Assembly (NCBI GenBank): GCA_951406725.2
Contig: OX597818.1
Span: forward strand, 50,840,001-50,904,000
Source of the DNA: Octopus vulgaris
Taxonomy: Eukaryota
DNA: 64,000 nucleotides
Direction: 5' to 3'
The position numbers were made by a program, and so were the translations under genes. Position 1 is the first letter of the stretch; each line of letters opens with the position of its first letter. Positions 10,613 through 60,449 of this stretch are shown here, in pieces. The notes beneath the pieces were generated by a model. The model searched no databases. It was not told the DNA's origin and saw only the letters and a list, made by a program, of their open reading frames with translations.

Positions 10613-10891
10613 TATTTCGTGTTGGGGGGCATCTTTACTTTGTTATCTCCCCTATTTTCCTTCTCGTGTGTGACCCTTCTGTCTGAGTCAGTTGCCATGA
10701 TAGATCGTTAGCCACTACACACATTTTTGTCTCTCCTTGTTTCTCTCCTTGTTTTTTCTGTGTCCCTTTCTGAAGAAGAGTGTAGGCTCGAAACGTAAAA
10801 GACTTTTCTATTCCTAAGCGTTATACTAATACATTTGTTTGTTTTGTACACCACCTGTCTTCGTCTTTTGTTTTTTTCGTAAATTCTCCCT
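10613..10891 (+). mobile_element. Penelope-like (pLTR) fragment between (TA)n tracts
   Basis: Related copies at ~42000-42125, 49606-49800 (-), 59822-59985, 60100-60315 (-); carries a minimal hammerhead. Confidence 0.65.
10766..10801 (+). ncRNA. Minimal type-I hammerhead ribozyme motif, canonical core
   Basis: CTTT-CTGAAGA-A-GAGT gtag GCTC-GAAA-CG-TA-AAAG: stem I CTTT/AAAG, stem II GAGT/GCTC (one G-U), palindromic ACGT stem III. Confidence 0.65.
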
Positions 10892-10985
10892 ATATATATA
10901 TATATATATATATGCATATATATATGTATATATATTAAAAAAAAATAGAAAATAGAAAATGCTAAATTAATTTTATTAAAAATAT

Positions 10986-11020
10986 TTCAATACCGGTTTC
11001 AGTCATTGAAACTTTTTCAT
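10986..11020 (-). ncRNA. Degenerate or truncated hammerhead-like motif
   Basis: Minus strand ATGAAAA-AGTT tcaat GACT-GAAA-CCGG-TA-TTGAA; 5' strand of stem I not evident. Confidence 0.35.
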
Positions 11021-11632
11021 CTGTAACAATTAAACAATTAAATTTAGAAAATTTAAAAGAAAAGTTTTTTAAAAAGAATATTTGTATAGTGTTCAAATAT
11101 TTTCCTTGTTTCTGCCTGTCTCTGTCTCTCTTGTTTACTCTTGTAGGTTCGAGGTTATTGTGAATATATGTATGTGTGTGTGTGTGTGTGTGTGTGCGTG
11201 TGTGTGTGTGTGTGTGTGTGTGTGTGTGTGTGTGTGTGTGTCTATGTATGTATAAAGTTTGTTTGTGTTGACTTATAACCCTTTCTTAGTTTGGTCAGCA
11301 AAACACCAAAAGGATGAAAGGCAAAGCCGTCCTCGGTGTAAACTGAGCTCAGAACATAAAGGTGAAATGGCTAAGCACTTTTTCCGGCATGTTAATGTTT
11401 CTGCCAGCTCGCCGCCTTATTTTATATGTTTTTTTAAAATCTATTTTACATTAAACCGAAAGATTATTCAATACATTTTGTAAAGTACATATTTATCCAC
11501 TGCTACCGAAGTGGTGACAACGACTTCGAAGTTTTGGCCAGATGGTCTTGATCGGACTGTCTGATAAAGCCTAGTAGACAGGAACTTCGAAGTCAATGTT
11601 GCTACTATTCTTGTAAAAGTAAAATAAACATA

Positions 11633-12048
11633 TAGGTGCAGGAGTGGCTGTGTGGTAAGTAGCTTGATTACCAACCACATGGGTCCGGGTTCAGTCCCAC
11701 TGCGTGGCATCTTGGGCAAGTGTCTTCTACTATAGCCTCGGGCCGACCAAAGCCTTATGAGTGGATTTGGTAGACGGAAACTGAAAGAAGCTCGTCGTAT
11801 ATATGTAAATATATAAATATGTGTGTGTGTGTATGTTTGTGTGTATGTGTTTATCCCCCTAGCATTGCTAGGGAGACAACCGATGCTGGTGTGTTTATGT
11901 CCCCGTCACTTAGCGTTTCGACAAAAGAGACCGATAGAATAAGTACTAGGCTTACAAAGAATAAGTCCCGGAGTCGCTTTGCTCGACTAAAGGCGATGCT
12001 CCAGCATGGCCGCAGTCAAATACCTGAAACAAATAAGAGTAAAGAGAA
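11633..12048 (+). mobile_element. SINE family B (tRNA head, CORE-like segment, internal TA/TG microsatellite), full length
   Basis: GCAGGAGTGGCTGTGTGGTAAG...GGGTTCAGTCCCAC..CTTGGGCAAGTGTCTT...GAAACAAATAAGAGTAAAGAG. Confidence 0.85.
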
Positions 12049-12155
12049 TAGGTGTGCGCGCGCATATACACGCATATACACGCATACACGCACGCACACA
12101 CACACACACACACACACACACACACATACATAGACGTGAACTTTGTTTAAAGTCG

Positions 12156-56711: not shown

Positions 56712-57704
56712 GTCCTTTTTGAGCGACACATTTTCCATTTGAGTCAATACAGAATTACAGATAGTATTTATGGAGTGTTGATTTACTGTCGGGTGACTTC
56801 TGGTCAACCCTGTATAAAGAGTAAATTCCCGTCATACAAAAAATATTAGCAAAATGAACCACTAGAATCGAACCGTGAATCTGCCGAAGGCGGCGCAGCA
56901 CTGATGTCAACACAGTAAAGAGATTCGTTGACTTTTAAACCGAGAAATTAAAAATTGCACTTAATGTACTTCGTAGATAGATTTATTGCCAATCTCCATG
57001 CTTCAAAATATGTGTAGAACTTCCCTTGTGTGTGTGTGTTTGTGTGTGTGTGTGTGTGTGTGTGTGTGTGTACGTGTGTGTGTGTCTGTCTGTCTGTCTG
57101 TATGTCTGTTTCTCTGTTCTGTCTGCTTCTCTGTGTACTGTGCGTGAATGTATGCACGTATCTTTCTATGTATGCATCCATGCATCTGTACGTACACATC
57201 CATACTTATATGAAAGGTTAGATAGAAGTTAGGCTGCTATTCATTTAGACAATACAACGAACCTTCATATCTGCATCATTAATGAATCTCTCTATACAAA
57301 ATCAATTAAGTCAATAACGAAGAACATCATTTGTATGGAATATTGTAAATAAATGACATTAGTTTTGGATTATCATATTACGTATTACATATTGGCTTCC
57401 ATTATAATAAAACTTATGATCATTATGATTAGAATGTCCATCGTGGGCGGCAGAGATCATCAGATCAATCATTAGCAAGCACTTGCTTTATGCAATATGG
57501 CTTCTATTTCTAGCTGGATTTAAAATGTGCTCAAAGTCACTTATATGATCCATGGAAGCTATTGTATAACTAATGTAAGACCGACAGTAAAATAATTACC
57601 AGCGACGACATTACTTCCACAAGTACGAACGTTGTAGGACTTTAATCAAAAGATACGGTCTAGTTTAGAATCCGGTTGATCGAGGCAGACACATTAACAT
57701 CATT

Positions 57705-58139
57705 GGGATCTTTTCGGTTTGACAGGCAGTTTTTAACATAATTTCTAGGTAACTAAAAAATTTTAAACTTCGTATACTGGTAGAATGTGTTTATAAAACA
57801 TGTTTTTCTCTTGGCTTTATTGAGAAAATTCTATAGTTTGTAAGATATTTGTTGTCTTTTTTCTTCAATTTCTGCAACTTCAACCAATCAGTGACGTCTA
57901 TTGAGGTAAAAAAAACATTCTGTGCCGTATGAATATGTCCCTCATTTAAGAAACAGATTGGGTTTATTTACATTTGTGAAGAAAAAAGATACCCTTCCCC
58001 CACCCCTAACCCTAACCCTAACTAACCCTAACCCTAAAACAGATTGAAATGCAATAGATCGATACTAGGGTCATAATTATGGGTGACAATTTCATATGAC
58101 ACCGCTAGAAAAAACTGCCGTTCAAACCGAAAAGATCCC
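57705..58139. mobile_element. Non-autonomous DNA transposon (MITE) with 6-bp TSD and internal (CCCTAA)n
   Basis: TIRs GGGATCTTTTCGGTTTGA..GGCAGTTTTT / AAAAACTGCCGTTCAAACCGAAAAGATCCC; TSD ATCATT (57699-57704, 58140-58145). Confidence 0.9.
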
Positions 58140-58567
58140 ATCATTGAAACCTAAGTTAACACACACAACATCGCTTCACTCTTCTTTTTCAACTATTCCT
58201 AGAACGGTCTCTGCTCCTAAGATATGGTTAATTGCATACCACTCCACCCGTGCCCACTCATCTCTGCCCCTCTCCTTATCCTTTTATGAAGCTTCCTTAC
58301 CTTCCATATAAACCCTTATGTAACCCCCTACACTATGTCTGCCTTCTTCAGGACAACAACTATCTAGAATTTCCTTCTAACCCCCACATTTTCCCCTTAA
58401 CGTCAACTGAACATAAACCAATTCGGTTTTATCAGTTTCGAAGGGAGAGTATGAGATGGCCATCGTCTCTTCTTCCTGGCTTAAACCATAAAAAACAAAT
58501 ATCAAATAAAAGATTTCATTTGTGTAACGCAGACGTAAAAATTTTTTCATCAGAAAGAAAATTAAAT

Positions 58568-58980
58568 AGGCCTAGGAGTGGCTGTGTGGTAAGTAGCTTG
58601 CATGACAACCACACGGTTCCGGGTTCAGTTCCACTGCGTGGTACCTTGGGCAAGTGCCTTCTACAATAGCCTTCTACTGTAGCCTCGAGCCGACCAAAGC
58701 CTTGTGAGTGGATTTGGTAGACGGAAACTGAAAGAAGCCCGTCGTATATATGTATATATATATGTGTGTGTGTATGTGTGTGTATGTTAGTGTGTCTGTG
58801 TTTGTACCCCCAACCAATGCTGCTGTCTTTACGTTCGTAACTTAGCGGTTCAGCAAAAGAAACCGATAGAATAAGTACTAGGCTTACAAAGAATAAGTCC
58901 TGGGGTCGATTTGCTCGACTAAAAGGCGGTGCTGCGGCATGGCCACAGTCAAAATGACTGAAACAAGTAAAAGAGAGTAA
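58568..58980 (+). mobile_element. SINE family B
   Basis: Family consensus match with a short internal duplication (CCTTCTAC..TAGC). Confidence 0.85.
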
Positions 58981-59627
58981 GCTTTTACGTTCTTATTTGG
59001 TTATTACATACAACTATCCGCTTATGTTTTTCAATTTGATAATTTAAACGTTTTTCAATTTATACTGTTTCCTTCCGGAGAGAAGTTTGCATAAAGTTGA
59101 GAGACCCTTTCGGTATTGCCAATCAGTCGAAACCATTTTGTTTTAGTTATGCCGCTAATGCTCTTGCGAAAGACGTTGCCAAAATAGAATTTCCGGTCTA
59201 CTTGGAAAATGTCAAGCTTCGTGATATTAACGAAATTATTTGGGTCTGCTAAATCAAACTTATTTGAGTCAATTTACTTCAATTATGTTCTTAATTCAAA
59301 TTTTCTTGTCTTTTCCTCTATTTCTTCGCCAAGGAAATGAGTGCCAGTCAGGAACCGAGGCTGGTTTGATAGAATATTTACTTTCCTTGTAAATGTGTGG
59401 CTTTGGTCATCTAGATTACTACTGTAAGATAGTTGTTGCTCTTGTTGTTCTTGATGCTGCTGCTTTTGTGGTGGTGGTGGTGGTGGTGGTGGTGGTGCTA
59501 GTGATGGTGGTGCTGGTGGTGGTGCTGCTGGTGGTAGTGGTTTCGTCCAAGGAAAAAGCGGAGAATTGGCAGCACTGTTAGGATCTTGAATTGAATTTTC
59601 CGCAGTAATTGTTCTGACTTTCTACAC

Positions 59628-60449
59628 CAGCGTTCTAGGGTTCTGCAAAAGGTTCCTAGGGGTTCCACGAAAAAGAGTGAGATAAGCTAATGCTAATTTC
59701 ATAATCGTAATATTACTATACATGCACAACATATTATTGGCTGTTGTAATTTAGACATCATCCTATTTAACCTATTATGTTATCAAAAGAATACAACAAT
59801 CATTGGTGATATATATATATATCCTTTATTTTCTCTCTTTCTTTCTTTCTGAATTCCTTTCTGTGGAAGAGCGTAGGCTCGAAACGTTAAAGACTTTTTC
59901 ACTTCCCGAGCGTTAAACTAATACATCTGTTTGTTGTCTATACCACCTGTCTTCGTCTTTTGTTTTTTTTTGTGAATTCTCCCTATATATATATATATAT
60001 ATAGTAATGTTTATATTCCAACATAACGTGGCAGTCCTGTAAAGGACAATGTTACTGTTGCTCTTCTCGACATACATATATATATATACATATATATATG
60101 TATATTCCAAAACAAAAACGAAGAAAAAGCAGAAGAAAAAACAACAAGGCGAGGACGTGGTACATGCGAAGTATTAACAGACGCTCAGGGAAGGAAAGAA
60201 AGGTAGTTTTACGTTTCGAGCAAAGTTCTTCTTCAGAAACAGGAGACAGAGGAAAGAGCAAGAGAAAAAGAAGACGGAGTGGGAAAAAATCGCTAACGAT
60301 CGACATGTGGTTACATTAGATTACATATATGTAAGATATTTACTGCGTGAACTACGATGAAAAGAAATATGAGAAAGATATGGCGTGTAATTTCTTTTAT
60401 TTAATTTATTTTAAGGGTTACGCAAGGGTAAAACGTTTGAGAAACACTG
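59628..60449. mobile_element. Old hAT-type MITE with nested insertions, itself inside a decayed family A SINE
   Basis: CAGCGTTCT...GAGAAACACTG termini; TSD TTCTACAC / CTCTACAC; GGGTTC subterminal motifs as in the 9088 element. Confidence 0.65.
60206..60240 (-). ncRNA. Minimal hammerhead motif, canonical core
   Basis: GTTT-CTGAAGA-A-GAAC ttt GCTC-GAAA-CG-TA-AAAC; one mismatch in stem II. Confidence 0.55.

Follow-up and report, generated by a model that had tools for sequence, protein, structure and literature searches.

We examined a 64-kb stretch of the Octopus vulgaris genome (contig OX597818.1, positions 50,840,001 to 50,904,000 of the 2.8-Gb assembly GCA_951406725.2; hereafter the window), which is 37% GC and rich in microsatellites, and in which an initial annotation had noted hammerhead ribozyme motifs within short repeats. 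Eight repeat families account for the noted sites. With a probability of about 85%, these sites are solo end-stubs of the pseudo-long terminal repeats (pLTRs) of at least five families of Penelope-like elements (PLEs), together with two tiny non-coding repeating units, and their hammerheads are predicted to be slow and to depend on a dimer or on a protein. Five of the families (A, B, C, D and E) are identified from the coding sequence that adjoins them elsewhere in the genome as pLTRs of PLEs encoding a reverse transcriptase (RT) and a GIY-YIG endonuclease (EN).

Hammerhead families and their excess over chance

Families are labelled by their sites in the window: A (10766, 42085, 49701 and 59857) with its older relative A2 (60206), B (10986), C (25126), D (31115 and 55167), E (56583), F (35548), G (35994) and H (40124). 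L-numbers denote genome loci outside the window, and N1 is an active PLE family with a 1312-aa protein. All eight families have the type I order (stem I, core positions 3-9, stem II, G12A13A14, A15.1...U16.1, H17, stem I) in a minimal layout with a palindromic stem III. This layout, as first described, or a recognizable remnant of it was present at every noted site, and the six palindromes that had been named are the majority stem III of their families. The term minimal is apt in general but not for 35548 and 40124, where stem II is 43 and 99 nt long.

A strict hammerhead descriptor matched the window three times, against a mean of 0.07 (maximum 1) in 60 dinucleotide-preserving shuffles. A relaxed descriptor, in which positions 3 and 8 were free and one deviation was permitted at 4, 6 or 9, gave 11 matches against 0.83 in 12 block shuffles, and eight of the 11 had a Watson-Crick 3-8 pair. 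The family copies among them have cores at 10770(+), 49732(-), 59861(+), 35551(+), 40127(+), 55170(+) and 56590(+), with a mirror core at 56552(-); 11020(-) passes although its 3-8 pair is broken, and the matches at 17576 and 28274 were set aside as looking like chance. Since the relaxed descriptor was drawn up after the families had been seen, the excess in the window is optimistic, and the descriptor was therefore also applied to unselected DNA, namely 40 evenly spaced 10-kb stretches (400 kb in all). There it gave 32 matches, seven of them from one array, against 5.8 in 10 block shuffles (range 2-10). A Watson-Crick 3-8 pair, which the descriptor ignores, was present in 29 of these 32 matches compared with 23 of 58 in the shuffles. 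As a rough estimate, 26 excess matches per 400 kb, with seven matches in one array, would put the number of motifs in the genome that pass the descriptor on the order of 100,000. An Rfam scan of the window with E up to 10 gave no hammerhead model in the best 150 of 192 matches; those 150 were miRNA models matched through microsatellites.

Link to Penelope-like elements

The window itself holds no PLE open reading frame (ORF) among the 41 frames of at least 110 aa that were examined, and tblastn gave no match in it. The Penelope-type RT/GIY-YIG link anticipated by the initial annotation was found for five of the eight families in the rest of the genome, where DNA searches returned, for each of A, B, C, D, E, F and H, between 613 and 2041 first-look candidates, and protein searches with fragments from these loci led to many long open frames.

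Family E is present in both pLTRs (942 and 5203) of L296, 4261 nt apart, which flank a 777-aa open RT-EN frame that shares 55% identity with the 1312-aa protein; this element, with G3-C8 in both pLTRs, is near-intact. Copies of E also precede long ORF remnants in L297 and L309. The tail of family D translates into the start of the 1312-aa RT-EN ORF with a score of 112 (best of 300 shuffles, 50), D precedes 650-770 aligned RT-EN residues in L283, L287 and L289, and in L129 it lies approximately 520 nt past an endonuclease end. A 134-nt stretch of family C shares 88-90% identity with the spacer end of a tandem 726-aa ORF (L226, L227); this ORF has RWK and DKT motifs and no CCHH, features of the Hydra clade in the available text of PMC8557442. 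The element with the 726-aa ORF has a canonical CUGAUGA motif of its own in 13 of 13 copies. Of 30 long copies of family A, 17 have a same-strand GIY-YIG endonuclease end upstream, and for family B, RT or endonuclease text lies upstream in at least five of 25. In the partners of A, B, D and E, a Cys linker precedes the C-terminal GIY-YIG domain, which has two cysteines, and by such motifs the partners of D and E could be assigned to Neptune or Nematis. In the ESM Atlas, neighbours of the proteins from L296 and L226 were labelled RT, HTH_animal or GIY-YIG at 0.94-0.99, and a search of the PDB with the partner ORFs gave no match. Tandem or partly tandem pLTRs occur in L226 (period 3431), L296 (period 4261) and the window (55126-55531, period 202).

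An RT plus GIY-YIG ORF joined to the repeat was not found for F, G or H. Two candidate links were rejected: a copy of E in L244, which lies 900 nt past an old Hydra-type ORF but has its own fold-back head, and copies of H next to PLE fragments in L094, L096, L100 and L119, which were judged to be separate insertions.

Stubs in the window

Roughly half of the copies in the window are decayed or truncated. Family A, assigned to the 3' UTR/pLTR of a Neptune-type PLE, has stubs at 10617-10890(+), with hammerhead 10766-10801, core 10770-10776, A6 and stem III ACGT; at 49612-49800(-), with hammerhead 49736-49701 and U6; at 59850-59984(+), with hammerhead 59857-59892 and U6; and, decayed, at 42024-42123(+), where G12 is lost and the core is damaged. 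The A2-like older relative at 60105-60315(-) has a canonical CUGAAGA core and a mismatch in stem II. Family B, assigned to the pLTR of another Neptune-type PLE, lies at 10936-11150(-); its decayed hammerhead (approximately 11023-10985, stem III ACCGGT) belongs to a U3-A8 family and has a private U3>A plus one stem I change. The family C stub with its inverted short arm (25022-25228), attributed to the pLTR of a Hydra-type lineage, is decayed in both arms (25126-25195); the family core is C3-C4-G-A-C-G8-A and stem III is ACTCCGAGT.

Family D is represented at 30975-31250 by two back-to-back arms with U3-A8 cores at 31118(+) and 31103(-) and stem III AATT, the copy at 31115 being a short inverted arm, and at 55028-55560(+) by an inverted arm and two sense copies 202 nt apart (hammerhead 55167-55203, U3-A8), whose tail encodes the start of a Neptune/Nematis-type ORF. 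The mirrored stub of family E at 56451-56711 contains hammerhead 56583-56633(+), with a G3...C8 core at 56590-56596, a 7-bp stem I, a 5-bp stem II and stem III AATATT, and a mirror core at 56552(-).

Family F occupies 35337-35876(+) with a portion of its non-coding 433-nt repeating unit, an inverted 5' piece and a tail; its hammerhead (35548-35617) is intact, with C3-G8, the 43-nt stem II and stem III ACCTGCAGGT. The family G copy at 35898-36050(-), from a 138-nt repeating unit, is 5'-truncated within the hammerhead and folded back, its 5' core (35994-36028) being replaced by the fold-back. The family H stub at 40105-40565(+) has hammerhead 40124-40247, with C3-G8, the 99-nt stem II, stem III ACAGCTGT and a 3-bp stem I. 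Inverted H-related pieces at 35083-35223(+) and 36297-36437(-) enclose the F and G stubs, several families being nested by insertion at one (TA)n site.

Core variants and covariation of the 3-8 pair

Many of the copies in the core tallies were chosen by likeness to the window copy. The consensus core C3 U4 G5 A6 N7 G8 A9 is found in F, G and H and is departed from in A, B, C, D and E. The 3-8 pair is C-G in 68/74 copies of A, 13/17 of C, 33/33 of F and 11/14 of H, U-A in 37/39 copies of B and 30/32 of D, and G-C in 40/44 copies of E, where the rest are G-G (two), U-C (one) and G-U (one). The U4/A6 core of the first description fails in family A, with U6 in 72 of 74 copies (CUG-U-NGA), so that A6 at 10770 is an exception within its family, and in family C, with C4 in 15 of 17. 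A2 has A6 in all 18 copies and C4 in 13. In N1, a very young family with many intact frames, C9 was found in 36 of 37 copies (for example L234 6073(-), L235 7191(+) and L236 6859(+)) together with a non-palindromic stem III (AGAACT); older relatives have A9. Among Hydra-type elements, an extra base between stem II and G12 was observed (L233 7648(+) and 3220(-); L226 4674(+)), and a 717-aa element has C4 in both pLTRs.

In 1.93 Mb, 371 distinct relaxed matches formed 23 clusters present in at least two loci, one of these being a single place counted twice. A Watson-Crick 3-8 pair, again not demanded by the descriptor, is the majority state in 21 of the 23 (15 C-G, five U-A, one G-C), and the other two are two-member ties with one C-G copy in each. 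At least 14 further hammerhead clusters lie beyond the window families, with palindromes such as ACGATCGT, ACACGTGT, ACATATGT, ACTGCAGT and ACATGT, and several have stems II of 40-100 nt.

The repeats had been called otherwise unrelated, which is not true of all of them. The pLTRs of D (U3-A8), E (G3-C8) and N1 (C3-G8) align above all of 200 shuffles (E-D, 126 against a best shuffle of 88; D-N1, 152 against 113; E-N1, 114 against 102), and the cores stand in register within the E-D alignment. In a tree of RT regions from elements of this genome only, the partners of D, E and N1 group 100/100 apart from two Hydra-type ORFs, the sole outgroup, with their inner order left without resolution. On these alignments the three pLTRs are homologous and of one clade, with C-G, U-A and G-C at homologous places, and since the RTs also group together, the letters at 3-8 changed at least two times within one clade. 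The covariation at 3-8 is real, and this evidence from homologous places is stronger than the comparison across families in the initial annotation. Retention of the tertiary pair through these changes of letter suggests that the catalytic fold has been under selection in the master elements. Young families are uniform along their whole length, and copies decay neutrally once inserted.

Ends of the copies, predicted folding and proposed mechanism

The stubs are flanked by (TA)n, and an inverted 5' copy was found in 18 of 30 family E loci. Their 5' ends vary, with clusters at about -58 from the cleavage site in E and about -92 and -59 in A. Two 3' ends occur in C, D, E, F and G, the preferred ones lying at +90/+144 in E and +42/+111 in C. 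In a tally of 244 incidental copies, where the D and N1 rows cross-match and the -43 in E is an alignment break, only two end within 3 nt of the predicted cleavage site, and for this reason we rejected the notion that insertions owe their 5' ends to cleavage by the ribozyme. Of 123 copies of A, A2, C and E, 92 keep the whole core, the 5' ends clustering a short distance upstream, and together the two counts indicate that inserted copies derive mostly from uncut RNA. We infer that the clustered 5' ends mark the transcript start.

In a monomer, stem III is predicted to close with at most 0-1 bp in A2, B, D and E and with at most 2-3 bp in C, F and H. Predicted self-pairing of the palindromes is strong in F, H, B and C (-17.7 to -7.8 kcal/mol) and weak in A2, E and D (-1.7 to +2.2 kcal/mol). 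Folding predicts stems I and II well in E and B and in part in A2, C and D.

Our proposal is that the element protein would nick AT-rich DNA and start reverse transcription inside the pLTR/ORF junction. Reverse transcription would usually stop slightly upstream of the ribozyme, probably at the 5' end of the RNA, and such a stop would leave a 150-250-nt stub with the whole hammerhead, copied from RNA that was mostly uncut. Two RNA copies may pair through their stem III palindromes, which would form the active core and could trim or circularize multimeric transcripts; the U6 and C9 lineages would be weakened ribozymes. Our best guess is thus cleavage that is dimer-dependent, slow or protein-assisted.

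Small repeating units

Families F and G each consist of a short non-coding unit with one type I hammerhead. The F unit is 433 nt long; five loci extend back into a preceding unit, and in the dimer at L067 the two hammerheads are spaced by 433 nt. For G, a DNA search of the octopus genome gave no match, and a pattern search gave 24 matches (reversed control, 0). Its full motif is present only at the repeat junction of L386, where the period is 138 nt and stems I and III are 4 bp each; in this complete form stem III could close as a monomer. Tandem copies were seen in these two loci, and most copies of F and G are monomers. Contigs of sequencing runs not on record as RNA cover F and an E stub; ends, strand and circles are not readable from them. 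A 359-nt-unit array of a further family lies at L391 2307-4513 (G000:C1:20.00 Mb), with five sense and two inverted copies, each unit having a canonical CUGACGA hammerhead and an ACCGGT stem III, in a retrozyme-like arrangement.

Alternative explanations

Several observations weigh against reading the sites as PLE stubs with slow, assisted hammerheads. Pfam gave no family on three intact partner ORFs and a sub-cutoff GIY-YIG on one fragment, so the clade names rest on motifs read against the available text of PMC8557442. The copy of E ahead of the L309 ORF has G3-G8. No ORF was reached for family H, whose copies have approximately 900 nt of non-coding DNA upstream in common. The stem III duplex is predicted not to be stable alone in D (+2.2 kcal/mol) and E (-0.2 kcal/mol), stems I and II do not form in the predicted folds of monomeric F and H (most pair probabilities lie below 0.15), and D, F and H have a stem I of just 3 bp. 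The U6 of family A and the C9 of N1, the most active long-ORF family, break the consensus core, and therefore some successful lineages may not cleave at all.

That the motifs are chance products of AT-rich, fold-back-rich repeats might be argued from the post hoc relaxation of the descriptor, the short stems and the matches that block shuffles still yield. We consider this scarcely credible, as it is already contradicted by the strict-descriptor shuffles, by the unselected DNA with its surplus of matches and of Watson-Crick 3-8 pairs, and by the multi-locus clusters, and the motif has a fixed position directly ahead of PLE ORF starts. A different proposal makes the families non-autonomous retrozymes that replicate as circular RNA, with multimer cleavage essential. 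It can hold only for F and G, because A, B, C, D and E run on into ORFs; for these two it draws on the non-coding 433-nt unit, the circular permutation of copies longer than one unit, the L067 dimer, the 138-nt period of G, the L391 array of another family and the published description of such elements (PMC7229834 and 10.64898/2026.07.22.740005, as far as available to us). Permutation also arises from linear tandem transcripts, however, and the copies of F and G are mostly dispersed monomers with PLE tails and fold-backs, which leaves circular replication a possible but rather doubtful account of the two units.

The remaining issue is whether the G3-C8, U6 and C9 motifs, although of the same origin, are still catalysts, or were kept as protein-binding, dimerization or promoter elements or carried along by successful elements. 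In favour of such a structural or hitchhiking role, the families with fixed U6 or C9 are abundant or active, the cleavage site is not where copies end, ribozyme mutants of an anole element did not show reduced insertion in vitro (available text of PMC11167929), and Naiads thrive without canonical motifs (PMC8557442, in part). A double change at 3 and 8 preserves a tertiary pair seen only in the active fold, however, and occurred at least two times in one clade; G5, G12-A14, A15.1-U16.1 and a non-G at 17 are retained; and C3G/G8C partly rescues cleavage in the laboratory (excerpts of PMC11167929 and PMC8495972). We think it unlikely that these motifs are relics. We put forward, tentatively and at somewhat less than even odds, that one PLE clade tried C3-G8, U3-A8 and G3-C8 in nature while sisters fixed U6 or C9, that G3-C8 is a working natural ribozyme under selection, and that these elements form a natural activity series. 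The role of PLE hammerheads is open in the literature available to us, which reports poor cleavage, a possible need for protein and dispensability for insertion in vitro (PMC4209133, PMC11167929). With recently active elements carrying canonical, G3-C8, U6, C4 and C9 cores beside intact ORFs, cleavage rates could be compared with how well the elements spread, and an activity series, if true, would show directly whether, and how far, PLEs need ribozyme cleavage.

Other features of the window

An abundant SINE-like repeat of 183-190 nt (17576(+), with tandem copies at 275-828 and 5025-5387) has a three-way junction whose core is not that of a hammerhead, and passes the relaxed descriptor once. 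The commonest short repeat (eight matches, including 20495(+), 24605(-), 26375(-), 31357(-), 53592(-) and 54955(+)) has a terminal hairpin followed by GAAAC..GT-A and resembles the 3' half of a hammerhead, without CUGANGA directly before it. The segment 42564-42986(-) is presumably a decayed mariner/Tc1-like transposase fragment, judging by its motif.

Comparison with known systems

The literature is cited here from the parts available to us. Cervera and de la Pena (2014, PMC4209133) described dense and diverse minimal hammerheads in PLE pLTRs, including a U3-A8 variant that escapes a CUGANGA search, an extra base after A9 and opposite-strand pairs; the supplement names the molluscs Lottia and Crassostrea. 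The octopus families share with that set the type I order, a short stem I, the palindromic stem III, the extra base after A9 and the place in the pLTR, as well as a large number of divergent families in one genome, a predominance of solo copies, opposite-strand pairs and U3-A8. The claim of a dense, diversified set partly missed by a CUGANGA search is supported, and this genome does show what such a search misses, but its novelty was overrated. The consensus in that paper is CUGANGAH, with U3-A8 its one named core covariation, and its available text gave no G3-C8, U6 or C9 cores, no stems II of 43-99 nt and no octopus.

A natural U3-A8, an A6C and a viroid U4C are recorded in PMC3088659, so the cores of B and D (U3-A8) and of C (C4) are known natural variants, and G3-C8 is a laboratory variant with partial rescue (PMC11167929, PMC8495972, PMC3884650). 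An A6C change is reported to favour Mn2+ (PMC7151607). No natural G3-C8 or U6 hammerhead family was found in the literature searched, which did not include the likeliest place for such variants, Lünse et al. (2016). Among papers judged by title and abstract none had A6U in natural hammerheads, and none of the matches listed for hammerhead and octopus concerned such ribozymes. A 2026 octopus repeat annotation (PMC13282606) lacks the words ribozyme and hammerhead. The look-up aimed at C9 was confined to the supplements of PMC3088659, as available. The arrangement itself (PLE pLTR hammerheads, U3-A8, extra base after A9) is established, and the G3-C8 and U6 cores may be unreported.

Dimer-dependent, slow or protein-assisted cleavage has been published for the class (PMC4209133, PMC6765202, PMC11167929). 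The small dimer-cleaving PLE hammerhead variants of Lünse, Weinberg and Breaker (2016, as cited in PMC6765202) have a short palindromic stem III and the PLE association in common with our families, dimer cleavage being reported there and only predicted here. The features of the stubs (ORF links, inverted copies, two 3' ends and ends off the cleavage site) are matched in PMC4209133, PMC8557442 and PMC11167929.

Poseidon of Anolis (Frangieh et al. 2024, PMC11167929) likewise places its hammerhead where pLTR and ORF meet, has AT-rich targets, copies mainly from uncut RNA (inferred for the octopus) and shows no ends at the cleavage site, and its two internal RT start sites explain tails of the same pattern as those found here. 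Unlike Poseidon, where C3G/G8C is an engineered partial rescue, the octopus has G3-C8 as a natural family state, and its partners are Neptune/Nematis- and Hydra-type by motif. In relation to the EN-positive PLE clades of Craig et al. (2021, PMC8557442), the partner of C has Hydra features (RWK, DKT, no CCHH and an ORF below 3 kb), and the partners of A, B, D and E, assigned by motif, resemble Neptune/Nematis in the Cys linker and the GIY-YIG domain with two cysteines; (TA)n targets and tandem and inverted copies are further points in common. Families F and G resemble non-LTR retrozymes (PMC7229834; bioRxiv 10.64898/2026.07.22.740005) in being small non-coding units with one type I hammerhead each; unlike those, they are mostly dispersed monomers with PLE tails and fold-backs.

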